Shown piece after piece: positions 10,778 through 36,062 of a DNA stretch of 64,000 nt. Each line of letters begins with the position of its first letter. Positions within the stretch are counted from its first letter, which is position 1. Origin of the DNA: Candidatus Enterousia onthequi (GTDB lineage Bacteria > Pseudomonadota > Alphaproteobacteria > Rs-D84); NCBI GenBank assembly GCA_018064365.1, contig JAGHVJ010000011.1, positions 13,269 through 77,268 of the forward strand, given 5' to 3'. The notes below the pieces were generated by a model. That model was not told the origin of the DNA and did not search any database. It saw nothing but the letters and a program-made list of their open reading frames with translations. A program made the position numbers and the translations under genes.

Positions 10778-10778
10778 T

Positions 10779-13946: not shown

Positions 13947-13963
13947 TTTTGTTTCTCTTTTTA

Positions 13964-15172: not shown

Positions 15173-15184
15173 ATAAATTCCTTT

Positions 15185-17328: not shown

Positions 17329-17422
17329 GTTATACCCTTATAATATAGTTATTGCTTTTTTTACCTTTTATGTTATAATCTCAATGAACCACTGAAAGTG
17401 ACTCGTTCACCGTAGGTGGTGT

Positions 17423-18217: not shown

Positions 18218-18226
18218 TTTTACCCC

Positions 18227-19729
18227 TTACAAACCCAATTCTTTCAAATATTTTTCCATTTCATCTGTGGTTTTGGATAGTTCCGATGTTAATTCGGCGA
18301 TGCGTTTGCGGGTTGCAGGAATATCCACCGGTTCTTCTTCTTCAAATGTATCGACATAACGCGGAATATTCAGGTTGAAATCGTTTTCTTTGATTTCATC
18401 GAATGTTGCCACATGTGAATATTTTTCAATTTCACTGCGTTTTTTATACGTATCCACGATTTTTTCGATATTTTCATCCGACAGAGCATTTTGGTTTTTA
18501 CCGGCTGTAAATTCACGGCTGGCATCAATAAATAAAACGTCTTTGCGGTTTTCGTTTTTACCACCGGCTTCACGTGAACGATCGAAAATCAATATTGCGA
18601 CTGGTATACCTGTGGTTTGGAACAAACCAGACGGCAACCCAATGACCGCATCCAAGATATTTTCTTCTAAAAATGCCTGACGGATGCGTCCTTCGGACGA
18701 ACCACGGAACAAAACACCATGCGGAACAATTACCGCCACACGACCCTCTTTGGTTTTAGCCGTTTCAACCATGTGGGATATAAATGCATAATCGCCCTTG
18801 CTGGCCGGTGGCATACCACGCCAGAAACGATTGTATTTATCGTTTTCCAGCGATTTATCACCCCATTTATCTAATGAAAATGGCGGATTGGCAACGACAA
18901 CATCAAATTTCATCAATCCATTGCCATCACGCAACAATGGATTGTTTAATGTATCACCCCATTCAATACGCGCGGAATCCAAACCGTGTAAAAACATATT
19001 CATACGCGCCAAGTTATATGTTGCACCGGTTTTTTCCTGGCCATAAAGTGCATAATCTTTGGACCCAGATTTTTCGATTTCGGCACCGGCCAACAACAAT
19101 AATCCACCCGAACCGCATGCTGGGTCACATATACGATCACCGGATTTTGGTTCCGCCAATTTAGCGACCAATTTACATAAAGTGCGTGGCGAAAAGAACT
19201 CACCCGCCTTTTTTCCCGCTTCAGTCCCGAACCTCTCGATCATGTACATGTATGCATTACCCAGAATATCATCATCAACTTCGCCCAGATCCGCCCCATT
19301 AAAATCTTTTAACAAGTTACGTATCATTTTATTACGTTGGTCGGTTGGACCAAGAATTGCCTGGGAATTAAAATCAACCGTAAATATGTCATGCAACTTT
19401 TCATCGTTGGCATCTTCAATCTGTTGCAATGCCACATTTAATATTTCGCCGATATTATCCGCCGACTGTTGAGCATAGACGTCGTAAAAACTTGCACCGT
19501 CTGGCATAACAAAACGGGCGTTTTTCAAACGCATTTCGATACGTTCTTTGTCATCGCCATAACGTTCAACCAATTTTGCACGTTCAATTTTGTGCATATC
19601 CGACATGTATTTGTAGAATAACAACGCCAAGACATAGTCTTTGAAAACACCTGCATCAACCGTTCCACGTGCAGAATCCGCCGCAGACCACAATAATTTA
19701 TTCAAATCGTCCTGTGTAATTTTAGCCAT
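18227..19729 (-). CDS. hsdM: type I R-M N6-adenine DNA methyltransferase subunit
   Basis: AdoMet motif DPACGSGGLL and catalytic motif VVANPPFS. 500 aa. Confidence 0.9.
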   Translation of the reverse strand: MAKITQDDLNKLLWSAADSARGTVDAGVFKDYVLALLFYKYMSDMHKIERAKLVERYGDDKERIEMRLKNARFVMPDGASFYDVYAQQSADNIGEILNVALQQIEDANDEKLHDIFTVDFNSQAILGPTDQRNKMIRNLLKDFNGADLGEVDDDILGNAYMYMIERFGTEAGKKAGEFFSPRTLCKLVAKLAEPKSGDRICDPACGSGGLLLLAGAEIEKSGSKDYALYGQEKTGATYNLARMNMFLHGLDSARIEWGDTLNNPLLRDGNGLMKFDVVVANPPFSLDKWGDKSLENDKYNRFWRGMPPASKGDYAFISHMVETAKTKEGRVAVIVPHGVLFRGSSEGRIRQAFLEENILDAVIGLPSGLFQTTGIPVAILIFDRSREAGGKNENRKDVLFIDASREFTAGKNQNALSDENIEKIVDTYKKRSEIEKYSHVATFDEIKENDFNLNIPRYVDTFEEEEPVDIPATRKRIAELTSELSKTTDEMEKYLKELGL

Positions 19730-20285
19730 CTATAGCCCCTTTGATTATTTGATTCATTAAACTTTTATTTTGTTTTTGCAAATCCGAAAGTATGTCTTTG
19801 CACCGTTGTGATGCATTAAATGCCCCAGATAACAATTCTTGCTTTTCTTTTGAAACAATCGGGATTTCTAATTCTTGTATTTGTTTAACCGTCAAAGCCG
19901 GCACAGTCATAGATTCTTGTTTTGATGCAAGTTGCCGCTGTCCGATTTCCGAATTGATGTATAACGCGATATATTCTGGCGTTACTTCAGTATCGGAATA
20001 TAACCGAATAACAAACACACCACTAGTTGTTATCGCCTTAAACCGTTCGTTAAAAACACGAGCACAAAATGTTCCGCGGTTAGTCACAAGTACAGAACCA
20101 CGATCTATAATGTGGTGGTCCGGCACCATTCCGGACTTCATGTGTATAAAACTGTTACCATAACCCGAAATTACGTCCTTTGGTTGAATAACAACCAGTC
20201 GCCCATCCGAATCATCCAAAATCGTGCTACGGAAGGCATAACCTGACTTTATCGTTGAAAAAGATCCTAACTTTTTGTACTTCAT
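19722..20285 (-). CDS. hsdS: half-size (single-TRD) type I specificity subunit
   Basis: One TRD followed by one conserved helical region (IPIVSKEKQELLSGAFNASQRCKDILSDLQKQNKSLMNQIIKG). Start taken at the internal MKYKKLGSF (ATG at 20285). The stop overlaps the hsdM start by 8 nt. Confidence 0.6.
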   Translation of the reverse strand: MKYKKLGSFSTIKSGYAFRSTILDDSDGRLVVIQPKDVISGYGNSFIHMKSGMVPDHHIIDRGSVLVTNRGTFCARVFNERFKAITTSGVFVIRLYSDTEVTPEYIALYINSEIGQRQLASKQESMTVPALTVKQIQELEIPIVSKEKQELLSGAFNASQRCKDILSDLQKQNKSLMNQIIKGAIDG

Positions 20286-20363
20286 ACAATCGAAAGTAAC
20301 AGAATTGAGAACAAAAGTCAAGAAAATATTTTGCAATATTAAAATACTACAATACAAACAATA

Positions 20364-21467
20364 TTAAGATTCGAATTTCAACACGTTAACTTCCAACATT
20401 ATTTCACCTGCGCGTTTGTCGGTGATCCCGACTTTGCGTGCAACAGTCAACATGTCAGTATTTGTTATATTTGCACCTTTGCCGTTAATTGACGTTGCGT
20501 GTTCCCATACGCCTGGTGTTTCTGTTAAATCAAATGCAGGTGCCAAATGCCAACCATCGCCGTCATATAAAAACGCAAAATTCTTGGCATGATCGTCCGT
20601 ATTATTTATCAACACATTAAAGCACATCAGACGAAACATCTTTTCAACTTCGACCATATTACGTGTCAATTTTGCCGTCAAAGATAATAAATCTGTATAA
20701 TCCAAAACCGGCTGCTTATGATCCGCATCCAATAAAGCAGAAGCAGATATCATAAACACCTTTTCGCCATTTGGTTTTCTGTCGAAACGCTCTACACCAA
20801 AGTATTTACCATTAAATAATCTGTGCGCTGGAACATCCAGACCAACACGTAATGCTTGTTCCATTATATCAAATTCACGTTTACCGATATCCTTTGGATC
20901 AACAGAAGCCCTGAATTTAATAATCCAATCTGCTCCATCAATTTTACGGAATATCTTTGGTCTTGTTCCGCCAGATGATCCACCAATACGAAATAATTCT
21001 TCTGTTATTTGATCGTCGGTTACAGTGGTTCTGTCGTCTATTATTTTACCGATTTGTTCGGCAATTGCATCCAGGTCAGAATCTTTATATTCAGACACCA
21101 TTTCTTCGGCTGGTTCATATTCCAAAGCACCAGGTCCATTTTTACCAACGATTGCAAGACGATCCAAAACAGATACGCTGTTTGGCGCAATACCACGACG
21201 CTGCAATTCACGATTAACCAATAATTCACCCCAAGCATCAGGTAAACTGTCATTAAACACACCAAAATTCCCATTAAATGGATCACGTTTCGCAACAAAA
21301 ACTCGCTTTTCCAACGGCAATTTGAACAGCGATATGCTGAATCCATTTTTTAACCAATCTGTATCGTATTCAAATGCCATCAAATTATCAGGTGTTAACG
21401 CTAAACGCCCCACGACGTCACCATGATATTTCACAGTTAATATTTTATTTTGCATTTTCACCACCAT
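20364..21467 (-). CDS. hipA: HipA-family serine/threonine kinase toxin
   Basis: Catalytic-loop motif NNTDDHAKNFAFLY plus an N-terminal HipA coupling-domain-like region. It overlaps the upstream HTH gene. Confidence 0.8.
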   Translation of the reverse strand: MVVKMQNKILTVKYHGDVVGRLALTPDNLMAFEYDTDWLKNGFSISLFKLPLEKRVFVAKRDPFNGNFGVFNDSLPDAWGELLVNRELQRRGIAPNSVSVLDRLAIVGKNGPGALEYEPAEEMVSEYKDSDLDAIAEQIGKIIDDRTTVTDDQITEELFRIGGSSGGTRPKIFRKIDGADWIIKFRASVDPKDIGKREFDIMEQALRVGLDVPAHRLFNGKYFGVERFDRKPNGEKVFMISASALLDADHKQPVLDYTDLLSLTAKLTRNMVEVEKMFRLMCFNVLINNTDDHAKNFAFLYDGDGWHLAPAFDLTETPGVWEHATSINGKGANITNTDMLTVARKVGITDKRAGEIMLEVNVLKFES

Positions 21468-21729
21468 CCTTTACCACATCAAATATAGATTGATAATTCT
21501 TGCGCGCGAACAGGTTATTAAAATCATCTTCGTAACCCAGCACGAATGCAAGTTTCAACAAAGATGTTAATGATATTTCACCTGTTCGTTCAAAGCGTTT
21601 AATACTGCCTAATGAAACCCCAGATCGTTGTGCAATTGTTGCTTGCGACATCTTGGACATACGTCTGGCATTACGAAACCGCTCCACCAACGCTGTTTTT
21701 ATAGACAACATATTGTCTATATCTGTCAT
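21445..21729 (-). CDS. hipB: XRE-family HTH antitoxin (HipB-like)
   Basis: 94 aa with an HTH segment (MSQATIAQRSGVSLGSIKRFERTG). It overlaps hipA by 23 nt. Confidence 0.7.
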   Translation of the reverse strand: MTDIDNMLSIKTALVERFRNARRMSKMSQATIAQRSGVSLGSIKRFERTGEISLTSLLKLAFVLGYEDDFNNLFARKNYQSIFDVVKDGGENAK

Positions 21730-21993: not shown

Positions 21994-22069
21994 TTTGGAA
22001 TTTCAAGCTTTTTCGTGGTTCGATAATTCCATTTCAAAAACAGCAAAATTTTATACATTATCGAACTAA
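21986..22069. repeat. approximately 84-nt hairpin-forming repeat, copy A
   Basis: Contains GTTCGATAAT (22018-22027) and ATTATCGAAC (22057-22066) around a conserved loop TCCATTTCAAAAA. A second copy is at 30806-30888. Confidence 0.7.
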
Positions 22070-23395: not shown

Positions 23396-23920
23396 TCATG
23401 CTTCTTTTACAACCAAATTATTTTTGACCCAGCAACGGCTTCCTTCACTTGTACGCACAAGCATCTTTATCTTTGAAAGTTCGTATCCCATAAATTCTTG
23501 TTCATCTATTGGATAATAAATAACCATTTTGGGTGGTATAGCAAGATTATCCCCTGGATTAGTGTAAAGCATATAAGCATCATCAAAACTATTCATTTGC
23601 TGACTTGGCCACCAAATAGCATAATCCTCTCTAAAACAAGACATAGAATGTTTATCACTCCCTATAAAAACAGTATGATTTGTTTCATTTTTTATTCTTA
23701 ACATTATTTGTCCATCTTTTCTGTAATACAGCTCTGATGCCAATTTATCTGTGTGATGATACGGGAACACGTTTAGAATCGTCACCCCGCACGTTCCCAA
23801 GGCAGTCAAAGCCATTATTATAAACATTCCAATATCTTGATCGGGGCCTAAATTTGACCACGCGTACACGATTGCTATCAGTATTAACAAAACAAAAAAA
23901 TAAAAAGCAAAATTCTTCAT
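23396..23920 (-). CDS. membrane-anchored hypothetical protein
   Basis: Start chosen at MKNFAFYFFVLLILIAIVYAW (ATG at 23920). Two N-terminal TM segments are followed by a soluble domain of about 110 aa. Confidence 0.45.
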   Translation of the reverse strand: MKNFAFYFFVLLILIAIVYAWSNLGPDQDIGMFIIMALTALGTCGVTILNVFPYHHTDKLASELYYRKDGQIMLRIKNETNHTVFIGSDKHSMSCFREDYAIWWPSQQMNSFDDAYMLYTNPGDNLAIPPKMVIYYPIDEQEFMGYELSKIKMLVRTSEGSRCWVKNNLVVKEA

Positions 23921-24231
23921 GATTCTAACCGTAACAAAACAATGAATATTTTGCAAACACATTATTTTGATAAAATGGGTTTTATATCTAATTTTGAATA
24001 ACCTTTCTGGAATCGTCCCGCCAATTATTTAGAAAGATTTCACAAATTCTACCTAAGTGGGTAAATTCTTCTGGATTTTCTACCCGATACACGCGAGTTA
24101 TGTCGAACCAAGGAATTTATTCAAATGACCTTTTTTATCGGTTTTACGCACTTTACAGGACACAACGAACCAAGGACCAACAAAAACAATACCTGCCGCA
24201 TATGAAGACCAAACATTCATAAAATATTTAA

Positions 24232-25020
24232 TTATATATTATAACCTGGATACTTTACAGAAATTCCGCCATCTATATTTATAGATTGACCGTTTAAATA
24301 TTCCGATTTATCAGACAGCAAATATTCTATAAAGTTATTTATTTCTGTGAATGTTGAAAAACGACCGGCCGGAATTTGTTGCAAATTATTTTTTGTATTT
24401 TCCGTTTTGGGTTGCGTGTCATATCTTACAACTTTTGTTTCAGAACCCAGTATAGTCAAATCACCACTGATACCGGCTATCCTTATTGAATTACATACAA
24501 TCCCTTTATCTGCATATTCTACAATCAAATTTCGAGCAAAGGCCTCTAATGCTGCTTTTGATGCAGAATATGCCGCGCTTTTTTCTGCACCAAAAATACT
24601 TAATAAAGACGAAATGTTTACTATATTTAATTTTTGATTTTTGGCTATTGCATTCTTTACTAACAATAAAGTTAAATATGCTGTTCCGACATAATTTACG
24701 CTTATTATGTCCTGCAACTTCTTGTAATTTAGATTTTCTATTTTATCAACATTATCTGTAGCAGCATTATTAACAAGGCCTTTGATCTGTATGTTTTGTA
24801 CAGATTTGACAAAATTCTCAATGGAATTTTGGTCAGACAAATCTAATTCCATAAACAATATATTATTTTTATATTCTTGAAATATTTCCTGCATTTCTTG
24901 CAAATGTTCAATATTTCTTGACGTCATAATCAACGCATAACCTTTGCTTAATAAAAATTGAGCAAGTTTATTTCCTATATTTCCAGAGGCACCTGTTAAA
25001 ATTATATAATTTTTATGCAT
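24232..25020 (-). CDS. short-chain dehydrogenase/reductase (SDR)
   Basis: Cofactor motif TGASGNIG and catalytic YSASK. It overlaps the upstream gene by 8 nt. Confidence 0.85.
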   Translation of the reverse strand: MHKNYIILTGASGNIGNKLAQFLLSKGYALIMTSRNIEHLQEMQEIFQEYKNNILFMELDLSDQNSIENFVKSVQNIQIKGLVNNAATDNVDKIENLNYKKLQDIISVNYVGTAYLTLLLVKNAIAKNQKLNIVNISSLLSIFGAEKSAAYSASKAALEAFARNLIVEYADKGIVCNSIRIAGISGDLTILGSETKVVRYDTQPKTENTKNNLQQIPAGRFSTFTEINNFIEYLLSDKSEYLNGQSINIDGGISVKYPGYNI

Positions 25021-26191
25021 TTTTCTTCCTTTGTAATTTCAAAGAATGTAACAACCCAGGTATACATTCTACTATTACATCATCGCGCTTTATCGATAGT
25101 TTATCCGATAGAATATCCTTGATTTGTTCAGAATATTTCAACATATCTTCATCAAAAAAACGTAAATTTACTTGTCTTGTTTGCAAATGTTGGACCAAGA
25201 CACATTTTTGCTGCAAAATATCAGCGATAAATTCCATTGAATCTTTTGGATACATACCATTTATTGCAATATCAGACGAACGTCCTAATAAGACCAAACG
25301 ACCATCTGCGTCAAAACGCGCAATGTCCGTTGTTTGATAAAAATTATTTTCTGGTTCTATAAATTGACCATTTATATTTATTCTGCGACCAATATTAGGA
25401 GAAATTAGTTTTACCATTGGTTTTGAATCAATTTGCACCAACTCTGTTGAGATATTAGAATCGACCGCAAAACCTACTGTTCCTACAGATTTGTCTGTTC
25501 CTTCTATATCAAAATGTGTCAAAGATGCCGTTTCTGTTAAACCGTAACCTTCTCTGATATCAAAACCACGACTTCTGTATATCTGTATAGCTTTTGTACT
25601 TAACGGAGCCCCACCAGAATCAATCAAAACATTTGTACCTGTTGTGTTATCCATTTCTGATAACATATCCAAAATTATCGGATTAGCTAAAATTACAACT
25701 TTATCATAAAATTTTGCGGATGAATCCAAAAAACTCATAATTTCTTCTGGCTTCTTATAAAAGTATTTTGCACCATTATTTTCTGCGTTCAAAACCCCAG
25801 CGATAAAGCTAAAATTATAAGAAGTCGGCATAGGAGAAACAATCATAGATTTATCAGTAATACCATAAATTTTTTTATACCACGAAAGGGTTTGTTTTAT
25901 TTTATCCTGATTAAAAGCGTATATCTTAGGATCTTCTGTACTACCACTGGTAAACATCGCCAAAGAAAAATCATCTAGATGTTCTGTAGAATTCTTACGA
26001 ATACAAATGGTCAAAAATTCATCTTCATAAACCACACTTAAATCAAAATGTTTTTTTAACTGTTCTGGCAACAACACTAACTGACACCCCATCTTTAAAG
26101 CTTTGACAGCTATGTCAGCATATATGTTTTGATCTGTCGCAGTAAGATATATCAATTTATTATTTTTTAATATCTGATCTATACTGTTCAT
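25013..26191 (-). CDS. ANL-superfamily adenylate-forming enzyme (short form)
   Basis: FTSGSTEDPK (A3-like), EGYGLTE (A5-like) and TTDIARFDADGRLVLLGRSSD (A7/A8-like). At 392 aa the C-terminal subdomain is short. Confidence 0.75.
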   Translation of the reverse strand: MNSIDQILKNNKLIYLTATDQNIYADIAVKALKMGCQLVLLPEQLKKHFDLSVVYEDEFLTICIRKNSTEHLDDFSLAMFTSGSTEDPKIYAFNQDKIKQTLSWYKKIYGITDKSMIVSPMPTSYNFSFIAGVLNAENNGAKYFYKKPEEIMSFLDSSAKFYDKVVILANPIILDMLSEMDNTTGTNVLIDSGGAPLSTKAIQIYRSRGFDIREGYGLTETASLTHFDIEGTDKSVGTVGFAVDSNISTELVQIDSKPMVKLISPNIGRRININGQFIEPENNFYQTTDIARFDADGRLVLLGRSSDIAINGMYPKDSMEFIADILQQKCVLVQHLQTRQVNLRFFDEDMLKYSEQIKDILSDKLSIKRDDVIVECIPGLLHSLKLQRKKNA

Positions 26192-27945
26192 TGGTTGCCC
26201 CCCTTGGTAAAATTGAAAGTTTCAAGGAAATGGTATATTGCTGATATTTTCCAATACAATTCAGATGGAAGTTTATGATTACCAGATTTAATATCAATCC
26301 ATAAACTTTTATCAAATAATTTGTTCATATATTCAGATGATGATATTTCGTCTATATGTTCTTGTAAATATTGAACTGCTAATAAATCGTATTTATCTGA
26401 AGGATTGACAAACGCCTGTTTTCTGCGTTTTATGATACCATCTGGGACATATTCAACAGCAATATCTTTGATCGGAGATTTTTCTATATTATTTACTATC
26501 TTTTCTTGACCAGACAAAGCAAATGCCATTTCTACAAATTTATGGTCAGTAAAAGGAACCCGACATTCTACTGAATTAGCCATAGACATTCTATCTTCTT
26601 GCATAAGATTACTTTGCAAATATGTTTTTGTTGCCCAATATGCCATTGAATTCAAATGGTCTTTGTTATTAAAAACAGTGTAAAAATTATTTAAACAACG
26701 CGCGGCATTTTCCAATAAATAATCTGTGTTTGCGTAAAATTTATTATAAATAGATAAATCTTTTAAATACTGTTCAGAAAAATGTTTTGTTAAATATTCT
26801 GGTTCGATATTTTTTAACGAATAAAAAGGAAAATCGTAATAATAACCCAACCACACTTCATCTGAACCTTGGCCATTTATTACTATTCTAAAACCGTTTT
26901 CCGAAGCGAATTTGTAATTACTAAACATAGAAAAATACACTTTGTCCCAAATAACCTCTTCCATGTGATAAGTTAATTTTTTCAGCAACGGCACAGAAAT
27001 ATCTTTTTTGGATACAAGAACCTTGTTATGTTTGATATTTGGATATTTATCTACCACTGTTTTTGCAAAATCAAAATCTATATTATTTTCAGAATCATCA
27101 TATTGGATAGTCATGGCAAAAATATCGGATTTTGTGTTTTTGGCGACAATAGAAGTCAACAAAGAACTATCAAGCCCACCTGATAATAATGTGGCATATT
27201 TTGCACTGCCTTGTAATCTTGTTAAAGTAGAATGTACCAATCTATCTTTTATCTCTTCTGTTGTGTACTTTTTATCATACGACTGTTTTAAATTCCAATA
27301 AACGTGTTCAGAAATATTATTTTTGCTTATTTCTATATATGTTCCGGGATTGACATGATAAACATCTTTGAAATATGTTTCTTTTTTATCGTCCCAAAAC
27401 CACATATATAAATCATTAAATATTTTGTTTATGTTTGGTTCCGTGACAACACCAAAATCAAATAAAGCCTTTACCTCTGATGCAAAATACAAAGAATTAT
27501 TAAGAAGTCTGTACACAATTTGTTTTACACCCAATCTATCACGTATAAGATATGTTTTTACAGATTTTTTATCATATATACCTATTGCAAAATCACCTTC
27601 AATGTATTTTATAAAATCTATTCCGAACTTGTCGTATAATCTTGAAATTACGCCTGCATCTAGTAAATCTGTGTCTAATCCAAAATCTCTAATCAATGCT
27701 TTATAATTATATATTTCCCCATTTAAAATAACGACAGATTTATCAGTTTCTATAGGTTGATTAGATTTATCGGAAAAATCTAATATAGATAATTTTGCAT
27801 GTCCCATTATGACGCTATCATCACTATACAAAATTTGACAATCTGGGCCACGATGTTTAATTGTGTTTAAAGCGTTGGTTGCGTTTTCTACATCTTTTTC
27901 AGATATAAATTCTTTTTGTTTAAATACACCTATTATTCCACACAT
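26188..27945 (-). CDS. asparagine synthetase B-like glutamine amidotransferase
   Basis: N-terminal nucleophile MCGIIG and PP-loop LLSGGLDSS. 585 aa. Confidence 0.85.
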   Translation of the reverse strand: MCGIIGVFKQKEFISEKDVENATNALNTIKHRGPDCQILYSDDSVIMGHAKLSILDFSDKSNQPIETDKSVVILNGEIYNYKALIRDFGLDTDLLDAGVISRLYDKFGIDFIKYIEGDFAIGIYDKKSVKTYLIRDRLGVKQIVYRLLNNSLYFASEVKALFDFGVVTEPNINKIFNDLYMWFWDDKKETYFKDVYHVNPGTYIEISKNNISEHVYWNLKQSYDKKYTTEEIKDRLVHSTLTRLQGSAKYATLLSGGLDSSLLTSIVAKNTKSDIFAMTIQYDDSENNIDFDFAKTVVDKYPNIKHNKVLVSKKDISVPLLKKLTYHMEEVIWDKVYFSMFSNYKFASENGFRIVINGQGSDEVWLGYYYDFPFYSLKNIEPEYLTKHFSEQYLKDLSIYNKFYANTDYLLENAARCLNNFYTVFNNKDHLNSMAYWATKTYLQSNLMQEDRMSMANSVECRVPFTDHKFVEMAFALSGQEKIVNNIEKSPIKDIAVEYVPDGIIKRRKQAFVNPSDKYDLLAVQYLQEHIDEISSSEYMNKLFDKSLWIDIKSGNHKLPSELYWKISAIYHFLETFNFTKGGNQ

Positions 27946-27955
27946 AATTACTCTT

Positions 27956-28969
27956 TTATTTTAATTTATTCAACACGTAGTCTTCTGCGACTGTTAAAAC
28001 AGACGTCTTGTTTTCTTTTGCTTTTTTAAGAAAATCTGTTGATTTATCGTAAATAATACCAACTCGTTTGTACACATAATCTGGACAATAATTTATTCCT
28101 TCACAATCAACATCTATAACACCACCAGAATTACATAAAAAATCTGGGATGTATGTAATTCCTCGATCAAACAATACATTATCAAGTTTCCGGCTCTGTA
28201 ATTGGTTGTTTGCGCCACCAGCAATGACTTTTGCTTTAAACATATGCACAGTATCATCATTTATGGTATTGCCCAATGCGCAAGGAGATAAAATATCTAT
28301 TTTATTCGAAAACATACCATTAGAATCTGACGGTATACAATCTAGTTCTTCAATACATTTATTCATTATATCTTTATTTATATCATACACATAAACATTG
28401 GCATTTGCAGCACGTAACATCTTTGCAAAATTATATCCAACCTTTCCTAATCCTTGAATAAATATATTTATATTATCTAAACTGTCCGTGTGCAGAACTT
28501 CTTTTGCGGCGGCTTTTATCGCCATACAAACACCGTAAGACGTAGCAGGAATTTGTGTCCCTTTATAATAAACACCCCGCGCATAGGGGGTATAATTACG
28601 CATAAACTCCATATCCTTAACAGATGTATTTACATCATCTGCGGTCATATATTCTCCTTTGAGAGAATTTAATAAATTACTAAATTCCAACAAAAGCGTT
28701 TCGCGCGGTACATTTGGGTTCCAATCATATATAAGTGTTTTACCACCACCAAAAGGCAAATCTACTACTGCGTTTTTATATGTCATCGCCTTGGATAACA
28801 AAGCTACGTGTTTTAATGCAGAAAAAGAATTATCCACTTTTAACATTCTGCATCCGCCAAGCGCAGGACCAAGTTTCGTACTATGAATTACAATCCATAA
28901 TTTTAAATTTTCAGATTTATAAGATACAGCTTTATAAAAATCTTTCCCTTTGAATATCTTGATTTCCAT
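27956..28969 (-). CDS. Glu/Leu/Phe/Val dehydrogenase-family enzyme (Leu/Phe-DH-like)
   Basis: LGPALGGCRM, LPFGGGKT (catalytic Lys region) and Rossmann GLGKVG. 337 aa. Confidence 0.8.
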   Translation of the reverse strand: MEIKIFKGKDFYKAVSYKSENLKLWIVIHSTKLGPALGGCRMLKVDNSFSALKHVALLSKAMTYKNAVVDLPFGGGKTLIYDWNPNVPRETLLLEFSNLLNSLKGEYMTADDVNTSVKDMEFMRNYTPYARGVYYKGTQIPATSYGVCMAIKAAAKEVLHTDSLDNINIFIQGLGKVGYNFAKMLRAANANVYVYDINKDIMNKCIEELDCIPSDSNGMFSNKIDILSPCALGNTINDDTVHMFKAKVIAGGANNQLQSRKLDNVLFDRGITYIPDFLCNSGGVIDVDCEGINYCPDYVYKRVGIIYDKSTDFLKKAKENKTSVLTVAEDYVLNKLK

Positions 28970-29692
28970 TTATCTGCCTCGACTTATTTCTTGCAAGAAA
29001 AAACGTTGCTTGTCTCTGCTTTTTAGTTGTCCATATGCGTATTCACAAACATTAGCACTTAATTCGTTTAAATATCCAAAGACCGGTTTGTATTTTGGTG
29101 ATAAATCCGGTGGCAAATAATTCACACAAGAATCTGTAATTTCAATAGTCTTATCAACAAATTCCCACTTTTCTTGAAAAGTCCACAATGGCGGATGTTC
29201 TACAACATCAATAACATTTGCTATCATGTCACTTATCTTGACTACTTTTGCATCAACTGAAATAGTTCTGGCATGCGGCACTTGCCATGCACGTTTGTCT
29301 TCTTCCTTGATTCCTGGCGGATTTGATAATTCATAAACCATTTCAGATATGTTTTTTGTGTTTTCTGTTCCGCCAACAAAACCAGATATGCTGTGTGCCA
29401 ACTTTTCCTTTGTGTTACATTGCGTATCTTCTATAACATCATGCAACAAAGCCACAGATGCAATTTTTATAATCCACTGAGGCATTTTTGAACATAAATA
29501 CTGCTTTAATGGAGCATCAACTAACGCATTCATTGAAATTTCAAAAACTCTTAACAAATGGTTTAAATGCGGTATCCTTTCTGTTCCCTCTCTTAATTGG
29601 CCTGCATGTTTTTCTTCAACAAAATAATAAACAGGTTTTAAATCTCTGTTTTTCAATATATCATTTACTGGAATTTGCTGATATTGTTTCAT
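28970..29692 (-). CDS. RelA/SpoT-type HD-domain phosphohydrolase (small alarmone hydrolase-like)
   Basis: HLNHLLRV... and ALLHDVIEDT are the His and HD..ED motifs of the SpoT hydrolase domain. 240 aa with no synthetase domain. Confidence 0.7.
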   Translation of the reverse strand: MKQYQQIPVNDILKNRDLKPVYYFVEEKHAGQLREGTERIPHLNHLLRVFEISMNALVDAPLKQYLCSKMPQWIIKIASVALLHDVIEDTQCNTKEKLAHSISGFVGGTENTKNISEMVYELSNPPGIKEEDKRAWQVPHARTISVDAKVVKISDMIANVIDVVEHPPLWTFQEKWEFVDKTIEITDSCVNYLPPDLSPKYKPVFGYLNELSANVCEYAYGQLKSRDKQRFFLQEISRGR

Positions 29693-30555
29693 AATTCCTC
29701 CAGATATTTCAAAATATCTTTGATTACTTGTATCTCTCGCTCCGAAGAATTACGAAGTTCCCGCTTATTTAACAGTTTATTCAAACGTTCATAAAAAACG
29801 TCTTTACTTACAATGTTGCCTCTATTTTTTTGAATACATTCTATAACAGGTGCGTAAGTTTCTGTAAATTGTGGCAAATCACCATCTTTTTCACCCCTAA
29901 CAACAACTTTTATAACATCGTATATCTTTTCTTTTTCAAACAAAGCCAATGTTGTTTCATAGCCAGAAGTAGCCAATTGATGAAAATTAAAATCGATAAA
30001 ATGAACAACTGGTGCATTGGTATCCAACTGTTTTTCATACCTTTCCTGGGTGGATATCAAACTTTCAATCTGATTAACCGCCATAGCATAGATTTGTATT
30101 TGATAGCCTTTTTCCTTTGCGTGTTTCACGATAAAATTTAATGCGAAATCAGTATCTCTTAATGTTCCTACGTATATTATATTTTTTCTTTGAGATGTTG
30201 CTGCAAGAATTATGTCTTCTTCCATATCAAACAGAAAACTGTTTGTGAACACAATAACATCATTACGATATTGCTTTATTTCTTCAAAATCAGGATGAAT
30301 TGTTCTGTATTCATCAATATCGATTACAACAAAACCCTCGTCCGGATAATCTTCCTTTATTCTTTTTATCAATGCTGTTTTACCTGCACCTGGCTGTCCT
30401 GCAGCAAAAATCAACTTTGGATTATTTGTTTCTGATACAGTATCTATATCTTTGCTTATCAAATAATTCTTTTTTTCTTCGTATTCATCTAACCTGACAC
30501 TTCTATTCACTGTAAATTTAGTCTTTAACTCGTCAAAATTCATTTTATTCTCCAT
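29689..30555 (-). CDS. zeta-toxin-like P-loop kinase
   Basis: Walker A AAGQPGAGKTAL, as in zeta/PezT-family kinases. 288 aa. An alternative start at 30543 (MNFDEL) is preceded by GGAG. The stop overlaps the HD gene start (ATGA). Confidence 0.65.
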   Translation of the reverse strand: MENKMNFDELKTKFTVNRSVRLDEYEEKKNYLISKDIDTVSETNNPKLIFAAGQPGAGKTALIKRIKEDYPDEGFVVIDIDEYRTIHPDFEEIKQYRNDVIVFTNSFLFDMEEDIILAATSQRKNIIYVGTLRDTDFALNFIVKHAKEKGYQIQIYAMAVNQIESLISTQERYEKQLDTNAPVVHFIDFNFHQLATSGYETTLALFEKEKIYDVIKVVVRGEKDGDLPQFTETYAPVIECIQKNRGNIVSKDVFYERLNKLLNKRELRNSSEREIQVIKDILKYLEEL

Positions 30556-30697
30556 ATGTGTGTATTTTCAATAAAACACCATCTCTTGTGTTAAGAGCTA
30601 TATTTAATCCGTGTTTGATGATTTTTTGGGCGAGTCTATTTAAACCATAAAAACTAGGTGCAATCAAATTTGTAAAGAAAATTATGACTCGCATCAT
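30545..30697 (-). CDS. possible 50-aa upstream ORF overlapping the kinase start
   Basis: My own translation: MMRVIIFFTNLIAPSFYGLNRLAQKIIKHGLNIALNTRDGVLLKIHTYGE. The TAA at 30547-30545 overlaps the 30555 ATG region and ends 1 nt before the 30543 ATG. No homology recognised. Confidence 0.25.
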   Translation of the reverse strand: MMRVIIFFTNLIAPSFYGLNRLAQKIIKHGLNIALNTRDGVLLKIHTYGE

Positions 30698-30805
30698 ATA
30701 TCCTTGATTGCACTTTATGATACAACACGCTTTTATAAAGTCAAGTTTTACTTGTTAAAACATCACTTTTGTATTATTTGGCTACATTCGACCACACTAC
30801 CGGAT

Positions 30806-30888
30806 AGTTTTCTTTGACTTCATTGGTCTTCGGGCAGTTCGATAAATCCATTTCAAAAATGGTCATTTTTTAAGCATTATCGAACTAA
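30806..30888. repeat. approximately 84-nt hairpin-forming repeat, copy B
   Basis: GTTCGATAA (30837-30845) pairs with TTATCGAAC (30877-30885). The core GTTCGATAAATCCATTTCAAAAA is 22/23 identical to copy A, and CATTATCGAACTAA is 14/14. Confidence 0.7.
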
Positions 30889-30958
30889 TTGAACACTGCT
30901 TAAACATCTTGTTTTTTGCAAATTTATGCGATAGTATCAATACAAACAAAAAACCGCC

Positions 30959-31756
30959 ATGATAAAAGATAAAAGTTTTTCTGCATATATTATACCAGTT
31001 CGCGTAAAAGATGGAGAAACGCAAGTTGCTATGTTGAATTATGGTTCAAATAATTATGGACCGATTGGCGGACGTCTTGATGATGGCGAAGATTTCAAAA
31101 CCGCGTTGCGTCGTGAATTAACTGAAGAATTGGGCGAACAATCTCTGAATTTGTTAGATTTAGTCACAGAAATCCCAGTTGCATATTCTTTCAAACACAC
31201 AGACCAGCAACGTGCAGAAAAGCGTGGTGCTTGGTCCGAAGAACACCATTATTTTATTTCACACGAAACAGAAAATATTGACCTAACATTTTGTGAAAAA
31301 CGAAATGAAAATATATCTGTTGTTTGGTTGAATATTGCAAGTTTAATCGACCCACAAATTATTCAAATTGCCGATATGCGTAATTTTTTTGCAAAACACA
31401 TTATATCTAACCTAGAATGTCGTTTTTCTATGAGTGTTCGGCATAAGTATTTTGAATTGATAAAATCTGGACAAAAAGATATTGAATTACGCGCGTATGG
31501 CGAAAAACGCAGAAAGATGAAAGTCGGTGATAAATTCTTGCTGTTTGATGCAGAAAATCCTGATGAATCCATTATTTGTGAAATATTAAATATGCATGTT
31601 GCGCCAAATTTTGAATCTTTGTTTAAAAAATTGGATATTAAACGTTCTGGTTTTGATAACTTAGACGAACTGATTGATACTGTCACAAAATTTGTTTCAC
31701 GTGAAGAATTACAGCGAGAACAAGTTGTCGGTATTGAAATCAAACGGGTTAAATAA
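30959..31756 (+). CDS. Nudix hydrolase fused to an ASCH-like (PUA-fold) C-terminal domain
   Basis: Complete Nudix box GRLDDGEDFKTALRRELTEELG (Gx5Ex7REUxEExG). The C-terminal roughly 110 aa (FELIKSGQKDIELRAYGEKRRKMKVGDKFLLF) resemble ASCH domains. Confidence 0.65.
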   Translation: MIKDKSFSAYIIPVRVKDGETQVAMLNYGSNNYGPIGGRLDDGEDFKTALRRELTEELGEQSLNLLDLVTEIPVAYSFKHTDQQRAEKRGAWSEEHHYFISHETENIDLTFCEKRNENISVVWLNIASLIDPQIIQIADMRNFFAKHIISNLECRFSMSVRHKYFELIKSGQKDIELRAYGEKRRKMKVGDKFLLFDAENPDESIICEILNMHVAPNFESLFKKLDIKRSGFDNLDELIDTVTKFVSREELQREQVVGIEIKRVK

Positions 31757-32038: not shown

Positions 32039-32066
32039 TTGACATTTTGTTTATTTTGTCTATAAT
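32039..32066 (+). promoter_or_regulatory. near-consensus sigma70-type promoter
   Basis: TTGACA (32039-32044), 16-nt spacer, TATAAT (32061-32066). The ATG at 32074 lies 7 nt after the -10 element, which implies a leaderless or near-leaderless mRNA. Confidence 0.55.
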
Positions 32067-32073
32067 ACTTGGT

Positions 32074-32646
32074 ATGAAGAAAAAACAAACATTTATTGAT
32101 ACAATATATCTTGATATGGATGGGGTTGTTGCCGACATTCGGACATTGGCCTCTGCGTTGACAACCTGGATGCCGTGGGACATGTTATCACAACAAGAAC
32201 AACAAGAAGCACAGTCTAATCTTATACATTATAAAAAAGATTTTTTTCAACAGGCCACAACATACGAACATACAGAAAAATTATATAAATTATGCAGAAA
32301 ATATGCGTTACATGTTCGTTTTTTGTCTTGCTTTACACCCGAGTCTGAAAAAGAATTTGAACGCGTGGCACAAGATAAAAGAGATTGGATTCACAAGCAT
32401 ATAGATCCTGATATTCCTGATTCTGATATTATTATTGTTCAGCGCGGCAAACACAAGTATGCCAATGCTTCTAGTTTACTTATTGACGACAATCCAAAAA
32501 ACATTAAAAGATGGAGAGATTGTTATGGTACTGGTATAATCTTCAAAAATTTGAACAATTGTACATATCAATTAGAATCATTAAACTTTCAAAAAAAGCC
32601 TTGTAATTCTAACCTGTTACACACTGTGTTGCAAAGACAACGCTAA
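32074..32646 (+). CDS. HAD-family 5'(3')-deoxyribonucleotidase-like protein
   Basis: HAD motif I LDMDGVVAD and motif LLIDDNPKNI. Start moved to MKKKQTF (32074) because of the promoter position; the ORF-track start is 32047. Confidence 0.6.
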   Translation: MKKKQTFIDTIYLDMDGVVADIRTLASALTTWMPWDMLSQQEQQEAQSNLIHYKKDFFQQATTYEHTEKLYKLCRKYALHVRFLSCFTPESEKEFERVAQDKRDWIHKHIDPDIPDSDIIIVQRGKHKYANASSLLIDDNPKNIKRWRDCYGTGIIFKNLNNCTYQLESLNFQKKPCNSNLLHTVLQRQR

Positions 32647-32699: not shown

Positions 32700-35600
32700 T
32701 CAATCAACCGTCCAACCATCTTTTGTCCCCAGATACATAGGGCTTACTTGTGGTTGTTTCTTTTTCATTCGCAAAGATGCAGAATTAAAGTTGTCAGCAT
32801 TGTTTTCTACACTTCTGGATTCATAAATCCAATCCGGATTAGCGGCCATAACTTGCATAGCCATCAATTCCGTTTGGAGTTGTTCTATTTTTCGTTGCAA
32901 TTTTCTTTGTGCAATGACCAACGCCGCTTTTCTTACTTCATCTTTTTTACCTTCTAGTCTTTGCAATTCTGCTTCTACCTTGGATAATTGTTCTTGTTTT
33001 GAATTCAGGATATCCTTTTTTAAAGCATAATCAACACCGGTATTCAAATCGTTTTGTGATGGACGTCCAAACTTATTATACAATCTGTTAATTTCTTGTT
33101 TGATTGTTTTTTCTTGACGTTTTAAATCATTCGCTTCGCCTGCAGGAAGATTTTTTGATTTACGTTTCAACTGAATTCTGTCAAGTTGATCATGTAAATC
33201 ATTCCATTTTTTAGCGTCACTTCTGCTAATTTCAAGAATATCTTTAGATTTTTCCGCGCCAGGTAACGCTTTACGATCTTCGGACAAATCTTCGCGTTCC
33301 GGTGCGATCGGTAAGAATTCACCGTCTGTTGCACCTGGTAAACCTTTGCGTTCTTCACCACCTGGTAAGCCCTTGTGTTCTTCACCACCTGGTAAACCTT
33401 TGCGTTCAGGCGCAGCCGGTAATCCGTTCCGTTCATCTTCGACCGGAACCACAGGAGCTTCTTCTTGGCGTTCTGGCTCTTGTGGTGTCGGTTCTTTACG
33501 AGGACCAAAAATAGCATCAGCCAACGAACCTAGTCTATCTCTGATTTTTTCAGATGTTGTTTTTGGTGCATATTGCCCAAACATACCCATACCAGAATTA
33601 TTTATCGGCTCATAAACACTATTTACACCATCATGACGAATTGTATCTTCTACTATATGGAAAGGAGATTCCCCATTTGCGTAAGTGTTAAATACAGGTG
33701 TTTCACCATCTGTCAATGTTGTATTTTGATGCAACCAACCATCACGATGCGCTATGGAATCTCCATTAGAAACCACACCAACTTCATTAATAGCAGATAC
33801 CATAGGATCTATTTTTTGAGCAGCCGCCATACCATCTGGGTTTATCGAACCATCTGCATTAAACAGATGTTTCAAAGCGTTTACTTCACTCATATCGATA
33901 CCATGTTCATGAGCCCACCCTGCCCCAAAAACAGTGTGATGTCCGTGTGACGGAATCGGATTTGGATTATAATCAGCGTGTAATCCCATGTTATCCGCAG
34001 TGACACCACCCGCATCACCATTTAATACAATTGCACGATACGGGTCAATTGTAGTTCCATGTTCTGCGTTATATGCCTCGATTGCCTCAACACGTTGTTG
34101 CAATAAATCTGGATTATCTTGATACCATCTTGTTGCGATATCCTTGGCATGTTCCAAAGCCTCGGGAGTATATTCTTGACGTTGTACCCTTTCATCCCAG
34201 GCCTCGTGTCCTTCTGAAACTTTTTTCTGAAAGATTTCGTTATCTGGGTGCGCTTTGTTATACTCACTAATTCCATAATTTGCCGCCGCGCGTCCCGCGA
34301 AACCACCGCCAATAGTAGCCGCAACATTTGCCAAAGACCACACCAAAGATTCTGCTGTACTCATATGCGCATCTTTGGCATCACGATACATTTGAATAGC
34401 ACTTGTTGTACTGCCAATCGCCAAAGCACCATACCCCAAAGGTATCGCAACCTGGGCCAAACCTGCGGCACCAAATACCATAGCCACCGCCCCAAGAGCA
34501 CTGGTTCCCAAAGAAGCCACCAAACGTTTATCTTTGATAAACGCCTTGATATCACATGGTAAACCTTTTGCTTTTTGATTTTTACGCCATTTATGAATCT
34601 GAACAGCACTTTTAGCAATAGCAACAATCACGCCAACCGCAGCAAGACCCGCAGCAAGACTCACACCCGCAAGCGCCGCACCAGCAGTCGCAATTGTTGT
34701 AATAGCAGCACTAACCAAGAAAGCACTGGCAAACCCCTTCAAAATACGAACAAAGAAATCTATTCTTTTTTTGCGCTTATCTTCTGGTGTAGCAGATTTT
34801 GCAAAGCGCGCCTTGGAACGTTTATCTATATTCGAAATCGGTTTAAATAATTTTGAAAAAACGCCTTTGATTTTATCCGCCGAGCCTTTTACCTTGGCCT
34901 TTAATCTCGCGGCAAAACCGGCAGTTTGATTAACCTGGTAATCCATGGCCGCCTGATACCCGCTGTCTGATATTTTGCCACCTTCCTTGCGCAAATTCTT
35001 GATAAAGTCGTCACGGTATTTTGGATCTGTAAACTGTTCTGGATTTTCTGCACCACTGATAATTTTTTCAGCAGTGTCTATTTCATACAATTTGTATAAC
35101 AGTTCTTCGTTGACTTCACTGGCCAAAGCCTTGCCATCAATCTTTTCATCGACTTTCGCAGCATGGCGCAAAACAACCTCGTGTCTTGCCAAATCTACAA
35201 CAGATTGCAAACGACCTTGTTCATCGATAGTACAACCTTTGGCATAATCAGAAACCAGTTTTCCTTTTTTATCGCGGAACTGGGGGATTGGATTACCATC
35301 TTGGTCCAAGAATTTATATTTTGATAAATCTTGTTTCTTGTCTTCTGTTATTTCAACCTTGCCAACAGCGGCACTAACATCATCCAAATGCTTTTCTATT
35401 TTACCAGCATTTTTATCAGAAACATCAGACAATCCGTATTCTTGGTCATATTCTTGGAGTGTTGCTTCTATTTGTTGTTGGTTTTTTGTTAAAATATCTT
35501 TTAAATTCGTATTACCAAGTTCGACAGCACCAACATCTGAATCTTCTAGACGCGCAGCAAACATTTTGTTATAGCCATCGTACGTATCAGCAATATTAGT

Positions 35601-36062
35601 CACATCTATAAAATTCAGGAAACGTTTTTCGTCTTCCGTTGGCAAAACACCCGCACCATTAAATGAGTAAAATTCTGCAGCCAAAGCGTCTATTCTATCA
35701 CGAACAGCACCCAATAATTGTTTATCTTCATCTTTATCAGATTTTTTTAATGATTTATACGCATCTGCCAGTAAACCAGGTGAAACAGTATCAACATTTT
35801 GATTTGCCTGGTATATGCGTTTCACAAAACGTTCAGAAAATTCCAATTGTTGTTTATCCGTCAGCTCTGGAACAACGGTTAATTTTTCATCAATAACACG
35901 AACATCATCAGAATCTTTAACCGCTTTGTAATCTTTGCCAGAAATCAATTTCATATCATGATATATTTCCAATACATCACGACAAAAATTTAACTCTACA
36001 GCGTCTGCATTCAAGGAACGCACACGTTTTGCATTAGTCAAATCTGTTGGTTGTTTAGCCAT
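32700..36062 (-). CDS. very large (1120 aa) membrane-associated orphan protein with internal repeats
   Basis: The central region has several long Ala/Gly-rich hydrophobic segments (for example AFLVSAAITTIATAGAALAGVSLAAGLAAVGVIVAIA). The C-terminal part has ER/HKGLPGG repeats. No enzymatic motif recognised. Confidence 0.6.
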   Translation of the reverse strand: MAKQPTDLTNAKRVRSLNADAVELNFCRDVLEIYHDMKLISGKDYKAVKDSDDVRVIDEKLTVVPELTDKQQLEFSERFVKRIYQANQNVDTVSPGLLADAYKSLKKSDKDEDKQLLGAVRDRIDALAAEFYSFNGAGVLPTEDEKRFLNFIDVTNIADTYDGYNKMFAARLEDSDVGAVELGNTNLKDILTKNQQQIEATLQEYDQEYGLSDVSDKNAGKIEKHLDDVSAAVGKVEITEDKKQDLSKYKFLDQDGNPIPQFRDKKGKLVSDYAKGCTIDEQGRLQSVVDLARHEVVLRHAAKVDEKIDGKALASEVNEELLYKLYEIDTAEKIISGAENPEQFTDPKYRDDFIKNLRKEGGKISDSGYQAAMDYQVNQTAGFAARLKAKVKGSADKIKGVFSKLFKPISNIDKRSKARFAKSATPEDKRKKRIDFFVRILKGFASAFLVSAAITTIATAGAALAGVSLAAGLAAVGVIVAIAKSAVQIHKWRKNQKAKGLPCDIKAFIKDKRLVASLGTSALGAVAMVFGAAGLAQVAIPLGYGALAIGSTTSAIQMYRDAKDAHMSTAESLVWSLANVAATIGGGFAGRAAANYGISEYNKAHPDNEIFQKKVSEGHEAWDERVQRQEYTPEALEHAKDIATRWYQDNPDLLQQRVEAIEAYNAEHGTTIDPYRAIVLNGDAGGVTADNMGLHADYNPNPIPSHGHHTVFGAGWAHEHGIDMSEVNALKHLFNADGSINPDGMAAAQKIDPMVSAINEVGVVSNGDSIAHRDGWLHQNTTLTDGETPVFNTYANGESPFHIVEDTIRHDGVNSVYEPINNSGMGMFGQYAPKTTSEKIRDRLGSLADAIFGPRKEPTPQEPERQEEAPVVPVEDERNGLPAAPERKGLPGGEEHKGLPGGEERKGLPGATDGEFLPIAPEREDLSEDRKALPGAEKSKDILEISRSDAKKWNDLHDQLDRIQLKRKSKNLPAGEANDLKRQEKTIKQEINRLYNKFGRPSQNDLNTGVDYALKKDILNSKQEQLSKVEAELQRLEGKKDEVRKAALVIAQRKLQRKIEQLQTELMAMQVMAANPDWIYESRSVENNADNFNSASLRMKKKQPQVSPMYLGTKDGWTVD
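33332..33412. repeat. 3 x 27-nt tandem repeat inside the 1120-aa gene
   Basis: Units at 33332-33358, 33359-33385 and 33386-33412 (CACCTGGTAA(A/G)CC(T/C)TTG(C/T)GTTC...) encode EE(R/H)KGLPGG. A degenerate fourth unit follows. Confidence 0.8.

Follow-up and report, generated by a model that had tools for sequence, protein, structure and literature searches.

What do six tightly packed genes of Candidatus Enterousia onthequi make, and what is their product for? The genes lie at 24232-30555 on the minus strand of a 64,000-nt stretch of contig JAGHVJ010000011.1 (GenBank assembly GCA_018064365.1), which we analyzed as a whole and refer to as the window; positions are those of the window unless the label of another fetched locus, such as L005, is given. 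A core of three of the encoded enzymes recurs as a cassette across several phyla, and in part of these occurrences it is coupled to a gene for arginyl-tRNA synthetase (ArgRS). Because of this coupling, we tentatively propose, at a little short of an even chance, that the product of the cassette is a non-proteinogenic amino acid or amide that resembles arginine and targets ArgRS, and that the ArgRS copy confers immunity. The features of the operon, in the order of transcription, are as follows.

30717..30744, minus strand: promoter-like site TTGACT-16 nt-TATCAT upstream of the operon, the top score in a scan of the region
30545..30697, minus strand: leader of ~170 nt with a small hydrophobic upstream open reading frame (ORF) and a hairpin followed by a T-run, its nucleotide sequence kept in four operon variants
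29689..30555, minus strand: zeta-toxin-family P-loop kinase (PF06414, E = 1.8e-36)
28970..29692, minus strand: HD (pyro)phosphohydrolase resembling Mesh1 and small alarmone hydrolases, with a C-terminal extension, assigned from PDB matches and a motif alignment
27956..28969, minus strand: amino-acid dehydrogenase of the ELFV family, similar to leucine dehydrogenase (LeuDH; PF00208 and PF02812)
26188..27945, minus strand: glutamine-hydrolysing AsnB-type amidotransferase (TIGR01536; Asn_synthase and GATase domains)
25013..26191, minus strand: N-terminally shortened ANL adenylating enzyme of 392 aa (PF00501, 59.1 bits against a cut-off of 29.9)
24232..25020, minus strand: classical short-chain dehydrogenase/reductase (SDR; adh_short and adh_short_C2, E ~1e-35)

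In the ORF listing of the window, neighboring genes of this set overlap or lie at most 10 nt apart. The kinase and HD genes overlap by 4 nt (29689-29692), the HD and dehydrogenase genes abut (28969/28970), a gap of 10 nt separates the dehydrogenase and AsnB genes (27946-27955), and the AsnB/ANL and ANL/SDR junctions overlap by 4 nt (26188-26191) and 8 nt (25013-25020), respectively. Every overlap and abutment given in a preliminary description of this locus was recovered from the ORF list, and the motifs quoted there (GQPGAGKT, LLHDVIEDT, GGCRM, GGGK, GLGKVG, MCGI, SGGLDSS, TSGSTEDPK, GYGLTE, TGASGNIG, and YSASK) are all present in the translations. Its family assignments for the six proteins hold by Pfam and NCBIfam scores and PDB relatives, with the HD protein weak in Pfam, and its statement that the six genes include no carrier protein, nonribosomal peptide synthetase (NRPS) or polyketide synthase, glycosyltransferase, or transporter is true. 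A 40-aa ORF that follows the SDR gene (24095-24217) was rejected as an operon member since it is not conserved in relatives. The window comes from the metagenome-assembled genome of an uncultured alphaproteobacterium of low G+C content, and the operon, at 0.29-0.33, lies below the 0.357 of the window overall.

The scan of the region detected no other strong promoter-like site at the operon than TTGACT-16-TATCAT, whose hexamers and spacing are kept in the homologous loci L181, L002, and L003. In the window, the leader ORF encodes a hydrophobic peptide of 50 aa that begins MMRVIIFFTNLIAPSFYGL, and across the four variants the peptide measures 50, 52, 52, and 27 aa. The true start of the kinase gene is most likely the second ATG, at 30543, because homologues align from window residue 5; the stop codon of the leader ORF lies 1 nt ahead of this start. 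RNAalifold placed two conserved hairpins in the leader, with few compensatory changes. A search of 23900-31100, including the leader, against Rfam returned nothing at E <= 1, and the whole window at the gathering threshold gave two distant tRNAs only. The leader may act as an attenuator, perhaps of the leader-peptide type. Since one promoter and leader are conserved in four variants, a single transcript is supported, and together with the overlapping or abutting frames they point to the six genes being a single transcription unit.

A gene-neighborhood comparison, which the preliminary description had proposed, found the six families together in the same order in other Alphaproteobacteria. At least two more sequence clusters (L002 with L181-186, and L003 with L004) have the identical six-gene order, their proteins being 65-81% identical, and the linkage therefore exceeds chance. 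These close relatives are metagenome-assembled genomes (MAGs) labelled Alphaproteobacteria and come, as far as sample labels alone indicate, from the gut or rumen. In L002 and L181, the operon sits beside a tyrosine integrase gene and tRNA-Asn, in surroundings that also carry NUDIX, GreA-like, NUDIX-ASCH, MetK-like, and DHFR genes. The six-gene unit is, judging from these neighborhoods, carried on mobile DNA and moving horizontally. The MetK-like protein, whose central domain is missed or weakly detected by Pfam, is 65% identical between L005 (416-1417) and L181 (15105-16148) and travels with the operon on different mobile elements.

More distant relatives were reached through the shortened ANL enzyme, whose family comprised 352 matches at E <= 0.001 among 8000 candidates scored and typically measures ~390-430 aa. 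Scans of metagenomes and genomes with the ANL alignment were swamped by the generic EGYGLTET pattern, and the true members among the matches listed were L014-L023, L030, and L094. The eleven genomic contexts inspected reduce to eight architectures. The conserved core consists of AsnB, ANL, and SDR, with ANL and SDR fused in some, and is usually accompanied by a LeuDH-like dehydrogenase or an aminotransferase. The cassette spans several phyla, occurring in uncultured gut Alphaproteobacteria, Bdellovibrionota, Priestia, and actinomycetes. A search of viral contigs turned up no relative of the ANL enzyme.

Four of the eight architectures couple the core to an ArgRS gene, often at the level of translation. 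The order in L005-7 is ArgRS, zeta-like kinase, ELFV dehydrogenase, AsnB, ANL, SDR, and NT5C; the ArgRS and kinase genes overlap by 8 nt, and the operon has its own promoter right upstream of ArgRS. In L174/175, an HD_4 and TGS gene precedes ArgRS, ELFV dehydrogenase, AsnB, ANL, and SDR, with a methyltransferase remnant and a radical SAM gene after them and a 17-nt overlap between the ArgRS and dehydrogenase genes. L178 has the same layout of ArgRS, ELFV dehydrogenase, AsnB, and ANL and SDR, the last two fused. In L176/177, tRNA-Arg(UCU) is followed by ArgRS, AsnB, ANL, SDR, an aminotransferase, a peptidyl carrier protein, and further genes. Finally, a Bdellovibrionota MAG (L015) encodes an oxygenase, a methyltransferase, SDR, ANL, AsnB, a 2H phosphoesterase, and ArgRS in this order. 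Carriers of ArgRS-linked cassettes include assembly GCA_017650375.1, the Bdellovibrionota MAG that contains contig JBILFA010000004.1, and the bins of Ga0257091_10006398 and OLIV22-1 scaffold_281. Between lineages, the ArgRS copies are 21-43% identical, compared with 34-62% for the AsnB copies, which argues that ArgRS was recruited several times and is not adjacent by chance; by sequence, the copies stem from three or four unrelated ArgRS lineages. Arginine chemistry gains independent support from the L015 oxygenase, as its best matches are the enduracididine hydroxylase GntD (E = 2.6e-33) and the arginine beta-hydroxylase VioC (E = 1.1e-28).

The accessory genes of the family encode ArgRS, HD_4-TGS, 2H phosphoesterase, NUDIX, NT5C, and zeta kinase. 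Each of these acts either at the tRNA 3' end or on phosphates of nucleotides or RNA ends, which suggests that self-protection or product handling proceeds via such chemistry. The 2H (LigT-like) phosphoesterase gene accompanies the cassette in three unrelated architectures (L015 12982-13503, L179 13579-14100, and L180 3423-3959). The tRNA-Arg(UCU) gene of L176 (5115-5188) lies 54 nt upstream of the cassette ArgRS and just downstream of insertion sequence (IS)- and phage-like genes, including one that fuses a minor-capsid protein with an ADP-ribosyltransferase toxin domain. A dedicated recoding tRNA, as in a pyrrolysine-like reading, was considered and rejected, as the loci hold just ordinary tRNA-Arg(UCU), tRNA-Arg(CCG), and tRNA-Asn.

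The likely nature of the product is indicated by relatives in which the core lies within NRPS clusters with major facilitator superfamily (MFS) exporters (L008/L014, L010, L179, and L180), with a phosphopantetheinyl transferase (PPTase) gene in L010 and L179. In each of the four NRPS clusters, one adenylation domain (A domain) has a nearly identical and unusual specificity code, DLK(S/T)x(L/V)(T/S)D(I/V)K, extracted manually from motif anchors.

L179 8585-11686: A-domain code DLKSLLTDVK
L180 11832-14825: A-domain code DLKTIVSDIK
L008 3289-8061: A-domain code DLKSVLTDIK
L010 7236-14312: A-domain code DLKSILTDIK

The aminotransferase stands in for the dehydrogenase in L176 and L008. In addition, a conserved protein of 630-655 aa takes the place of AsnB beside SDR and ANL in L010, actinomycetes, and Priestia flexa, and has no sequence match in Pfam, NCBIfam, or PDB.

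L016 7224-9152: AsnB-replacing protein
L017 7200-9167: AsnB-replacing protein
L010 1522-3417: AsnB-replacing protein

Read most simply, these arrangements would have the core make a single non-proteinogenic alpha-amino acid. The NRPS clusters would incorporate it; the stand-alone operons would release that amino acid or a simple derivative. The first of two hypotheses in the preliminary description, a route to an amide derived from an amino or keto acid, fits both the exchange of aminotransferase for dehydrogenase and the NRPS-feeding relatives.

All six proteins of the window look active, with catalytic residues kept. The dehydrogenase matches LeuDH structures with E = 6e-68 and retains the catalytic residues Lys68, Lys80, Asp115, Asn261, and Asn262, while its pocket, formed by Leu40, Ala113, Val291, and Val294, is LeuDH-like and hydrophobic. 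The substitutions E114D, G117N, and N293D are common to all operon-linked copies. Arginine specificity of this enzyme was considered and rejected: the core pocket residues lend it no support, and only the peripheral E114D and N293D are shared. The ScyB equivalog was not reached (241 bits against a cut-off of 600). The AsnB-type protein scores 349.4 bits for TIGR01536 against a cut-off of 267.1 and carries both the N-terminal MCGI nucleophile and the SGGLDSS PP-loop; its best PDB matches are the hydroxyamidotransferase TsnB9 (7YLZ) and Escherichia coli AsnB. The exosortase-A amidotransferase/ligase set and NAGGN AsnO were rejected as identities, with scores far under their cut-offs. In an alignment of 30 sequences of the ANL family, TSGST, EGYGLTE, TxD, GR, and a C-terminal lysine, which represent the A3, A5, A7, and A8 motifs and the A10 lysine, are invariant or nearly so. 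The PDB relatives of the ANL enzyme are distant only, namely oxalate-CoA and malonyl-CoA ligases (E = 1e-9 to 1e-7). Neither the ANL enzyme nor the SDR reached the cut-off of an NCBIfam equivalog, and proteins in which the two are fused exist (P0042 and P0098).

The two remaining proteins of the window operon are related to enzymes that act on nucleotides. The kinase scores 125.9 bits for PF06414 against a gathering cut-off of 22.3, and among solved structures it is closest to zeta (E = 2e-20) and PezT. Aligned with the zeta structure 1GVN, it keeps Lys46, Asp67, Glu100, Arg158, and the GTxR motif (as GTLR), whereas residues of the UDP-GlcNAc site are changed (E116V, T121D, and R171H). It falls short of the PezT equivalog NF041574, with 74.6 bits against a cut-off of 470. 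No recognizable antitoxin of the epsilon or PezA type was present among the called genes of homologous loci, with the upstream 50-aa ORF not included in the family scan; the gene upstream of the kinase is this hydrophobic ORF in the window and ArgRS in L005.

The HD protein falls below the Pfam cut-offs for HD and HD_4 (16.3 bits against 27.2 for the latter). Its PDB matches are Drosophila Mesh1 (3NQW, E = 1.2e-6), human HDDC3 (Mesh1), and the hydrolase domains of Rel and SpoT, with which the motifs H, HD, ED, D, and N align (HLNH, LLHDVIEDT, and KISDMIANV). Compared with known Mesh1 and small alarmone hydrolases, it has a C-terminal extension of ~50 aa. A word-indexed search returned three 90% clusters only, every one inside the six-gene operon, and an exhaustive search delineated a small subfamily of 9 representatives (E = 1e-17 to 1e-23, 30-41% identity), with weaker matches that were mainly proteins of ~180-190 aa, the size of small alarmone hydrolases. 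The relative L005 has the kinase without the HD protein. For this reason, a strict toxin-antitoxin pairing of the two is unlikely, and the idea in the preliminary description that kinase and phosphohydrolase form a self-protection pair is weakened.

Taken together, these properties allow a route to be sketched. The dehydrogenase or aminotransferase would exchange amino and oxo groups on a 2-oxo or 2-hydroxy acid intermediate, the SDR would carry out keto/hydroxy chemistry, the ANL enzyme would activate one carboxylate with ATP, and AsnB would amidate a carboxylate with glutamine nitrogen in an ATP-dependent step. The product would be a non-proteinogenic alpha-amino acid or its amide that mimics arginine or arginyl-adenylate and acts on ArgRS. 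In most stand-alone relatives, the operon-borne ArgRS would shield the producer, and in the NRPS-linked relatives, the same building block would be loaded onto a peptide and exported by the MFS pump. In the window variant, which has no ArgRS, the zeta-like kinase and Mesh1-like 3'-(pyro)phosphohydrolase would handle self-protection or activation, by adding phosphate to, and removing it from, either the product or a nucleotide or tRNA 3' end that the product damages; this is the least supported step of the proposal. The tiarins identify ArgRS as a natural antibiotic target, and aminoacyl-tRNA synthetase (aaRS) genes and modifying enzymes alternate as immunity in their clusters (10.64898/2025.12.02.691738). 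Moreover, ArgRS has no editing function, and producers of arginine antimetabolites rely on a discriminating ArgRS (PMC10018355).

Several observations weigh against this proposal. The window operon itself has no ArgRS, and the linkage rests on relatives whose enzymes are 37-62% identical. Identity between the ArgRS of L005 and alphaproteobacterial ArgRS proteins declines smoothly from 98% to 47%, and the gene may be a housekeeping one instead of a second copy. The hydrophobic, LeuDH-like dehydrogenase pocket does not obviously suit a guanidinium group, leaving an arginine-derived substrate unsupported at that step. An exporter is absent from the window-type, L005, and L174-type operons. The roles given to the kinase and HD protein are purely inferred, and L005 has the kinase without the HD protein. 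Lastly, no product or activity is on record for any member of the cassette family.

The surroundings of the operon contain the following features.

22018..22069, plus strand: left copy of a 52-nt direct repeat found by repeat search, with palindromic ends GTTCGATAA...TTATCGAAC
30837..30888, plus strand: right copy of the 52-nt direct repeat, found by the same search, in the divergent promoter region
7818-9899: GmrSD (defence island)
10085-13946: YgjP-like peptidase with HsdR (defence island)
13964-15172: Shedu SduA (defence island)
20364-21729: HipBA (defence island)
30959..31756, plus strand: NUDIX-ASCH protein, divergently transcribed, that travels with the operon (PF00293 and PF04266)
32047..32646, plus strand: NT5C-type 5'-nucleotidase-like protein in loose association with the operon (PF06941, E = 6e-8)

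The preliminary description had placed the operon on a repeat-bounded cassette next to a defence island, and the flanking direct repeat is real. Its two copies are 83% identical, and two matches were found against 0.02 expected; the ends of each copy are reverse-complementary. The 8.8 kb between them comprise the operon, two small membrane ORFs, and an ORF for a lipoprotein. In the set of 186 fetched loci, the repeat was confined to the contig of the window; it may represent a scar left by insertion or else a shared operator. A dense defence island (7818-21729) lies on one side of the bracketed segment and holds, in addition to the genes listed, two HsdS genes, DUF3800, and HsdM; it includes a type I restriction-modification system. 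In both L181 and L182, a gene for a protein 51% identical to the NUDIX-ASCH protein stands 3 kb away from the operon, and a 30% identical NT5C homologue immediately follows the SDR gene in L005. No ArgRS was detected in the window by tblastn, and the CysRS nearby at 36295-37737 is separate. Farther along, a 1120-aa ORF on the minus strand (32700-36062) has no Pfam match, a hydrophobic central region, four tandem repeats of 27 nt (33305-33437) encoding units rich in GLPG, and a G+C content of 0.41-0.45, above that of its neighbors. Another minus-strand ORF (41178-42296) shows a weak match to acyl-CoA:6-aminopenicillanic-acid acyltransferase (PF03417, E = 3.8e-10).

The link to ArgRS could also mean that the synthetase, with tRNA-Arg in one case, provides arginyl-tRNA for synthesis, so that the product has an arginyl group and ArgRS is not the target. 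The SerRS VlmL in valanimycin offers an analogy, ArgRS is the first and translationally coupled gene in several operons, a tRNA-Arg(UCU) gene stands 54 nt upstream of ArgRS in L176, and aaRS genes in clusters can serve either immunity or biosynthesis (10.64898/2025.12.02.691738). We nevertheless consider this unlikely: the cassettes conserve no known family that uses aminoacyl-tRNA (Fem/GNAT transferase, CDPS, or PEARL/LanB), the window-type operon has no need of an ArgRS gene, and the L176 tRNA gene, beside IS and phage genes, may mark an integration site. The genes might instead serve resistance to, and catabolism of, dietary arginine analogues such as canavanine and indospicine, with a discriminating ArgRS shielding translation and the enzymes degrading the analogue. 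The apparent gut or rumen origin of the close relatives, read from sample labels, would suit such a role; in bacteria, genes for canavanine catabolism are known to be linked to quality control of tRNA-Arg (PMC10018355), and indospicine is documented to be degraded in the rumen (PMC8226729). However, AsnB and ANL consume ATP, as is typical of synthesis rather than breakdown, no amidinohydrolase, lyase, or deacylase is present, and the core inside NRPS clusters with PPTase, MFS exporters, and a dedicated A-domain code implies that a building block is made, so we regard a catabolic role as quite improbable. A role in primary metabolism is contradicted by the sporadic, mobile, and cross-phylum distribution of the cassette.

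A function in conflict was the second hypothesis of the preliminary description, which saw in the operon a nucleotide-modifying defence module. Here, the kinase and hydrolase would have nucleotides or tRNA 3' ends as substrates, and the other four enzymes would make an intracellular effector or signal against phage. The operon does adjoin GmrSD, type I restriction-modification, Shedu, DUF3800, and HipBA genes, AbiEii lies near L174, an exporter is absent, and the accessory genes of relatives all encode nucleotide or RNA-end enzymes (NUDIX, NT5C, 2H phosphoesterase, and HD_4-TGS). Yet a search of the six proteins with PADLOC-DB v2 gave marginal matches only (mad8, E = 0.009; QueC, E = 0.002), no homologue turned up in viral contigs, no sensor or effector architecture is evident, and four dedicated biosynthetic enzymes with NRPS-linked relatives are unusual for known defence systems. 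With no defence model matching, location by the defence island is the sole basis of that hypothesis, and we give it a slim chance. Equally doubtful is a related scheme in which an intracellular mimic of arginine or arginyl-adenylate serves as a switchable brake on translation, for instance in abortive infection or growth arrest, with the kinase and hydrolase gating toxicity through phosphorylation and dephosphorylation of the compound or of the tRNA-Arg 3' end. If true, toxin-antitoxin systems would have a chemical counterpart that centres on ArgRS and is borne on defence islands. The kinase and HD protein might, alternatively, be an addiction pair of zeta toxin and enzymatic antitoxin merely travelling with unrelated metabolic genes. 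The kinase is clearly related to zeta and PezT, the two genes overlap by ATGA, and hydrolases of the Mesh1 and small alarmone hydrolase type are antitoxins to toxic RelA-SpoT homologues. On the other hand, the HD protein was confined to the six-gene operon in the word-indexed search, the L005 kinase lies between ArgRS and the dehydrogenase without an HD protein, and three residues of the UDP-GlcNAc site differ. Moreover, in epsilon/zeta modules the antitoxin gene comes first, whereas here the kinase gene does. We therefore rate this pairing as very improbable.

Returning to a mimic directed at ArgRS, the proposal would, if true, add a second, enzymatically unrelated bacterial route of attack on a synthetase that was recognized as a natural antibiotic target only in 2025. 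It would also provide a new non-proteinogenic building block for peptides, and the window variant would show coexistence with such a compound without a resistant copy of the target. As the cassette family is compact (five or six genes) and carrier-free, heterologous expression and ArgRS assays are practical. Our literature search found no description of the six-gene set or its cassette. The view in the preliminary description that the enzyme combination belongs to no known pathway is likewise upheld, as there was no PADLOC match, no NCBIfam equivalog past its cut-off except the generic AsnB, and no homology to pAgK84.

The closest known logic is that of indolmycin. The ind enzymes of Streptomyces griseus turn an amino acid into a 2-oxo acid, which a reductase takes to the 2-hydroxy acid, and an ATP-dependent adenylating ligase then couples the latter without a carrier protein. 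What results is a mimic of an amino acid that blocks the matching aaRS, and immunity comes from a second aaRS gene in the cluster, that of the resistant TrpRS Ind0. The cassette differs in its proposed target, which is ArgRS instead of TrpRS, and in its use of an AsnB amidotransferase and a LeuDH-type dehydrogenase, and the window variant has no aaRS at all, together with a zeta-like kinase and a Mesh1-like hydrolase. In dapdiamide synthesis, the pair DdaG and DdaH likewise consists of a free-standing ANL ligase and an amidotransferase of the AsnB type, which act together on a single small acid with no carrier protein involved; the target there is glucosamine-6-phosphate synthase, with no link to an aaRS. 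The likeness to dapdiamide lies in the pairing of ANL and AsnB and does not extend to the other steps of the pathway.

The kinase and HD protein show family-level homology to the zeta/PezT UDP-GlcNAc kinases and to Mesh1 and small alarmone hydrolases, with catalytic residues kept, although the window kinase departs from zeta/PezT in its three UDP-GlcNAc-site changes and in having no epsilon or PezA in sight. The agn locus for agrocin 84 on pAgK84 (CP000632) yields an aminoacyl-adenylate mimic from a hydroxy-acid amide alongside the resistant LeuRS AgnB2; it is plasmid-borne and has NUDIX genes too, as are found near the window operon. Homology to this locus was rejected, since tblastn of the six proteins against pAgK84 gave just a weak partial SDR match of 59 residues. 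In tiarins and trifolitoxin, an aaRS copy or a GNAT acts as alternative immunity, which parallels the alternation between ArgRS and the kinase and HD protein in the cassette (10.64898/2025.12.02.691738). Unlike the cassette product, tiarins are peptides made by the ribosome and then modified (RiPPs), with TfxB and TfxC, which are FMN-dependent dehydrogenases, acting on a precursor peptide, and none of the enzymes described there falls among the six families. Set beside these systems, the cassette would be an undescribed variant among antimetabolite clusters protected by a copy of the target, and the form in the window is unusual in dispensing with that copy.

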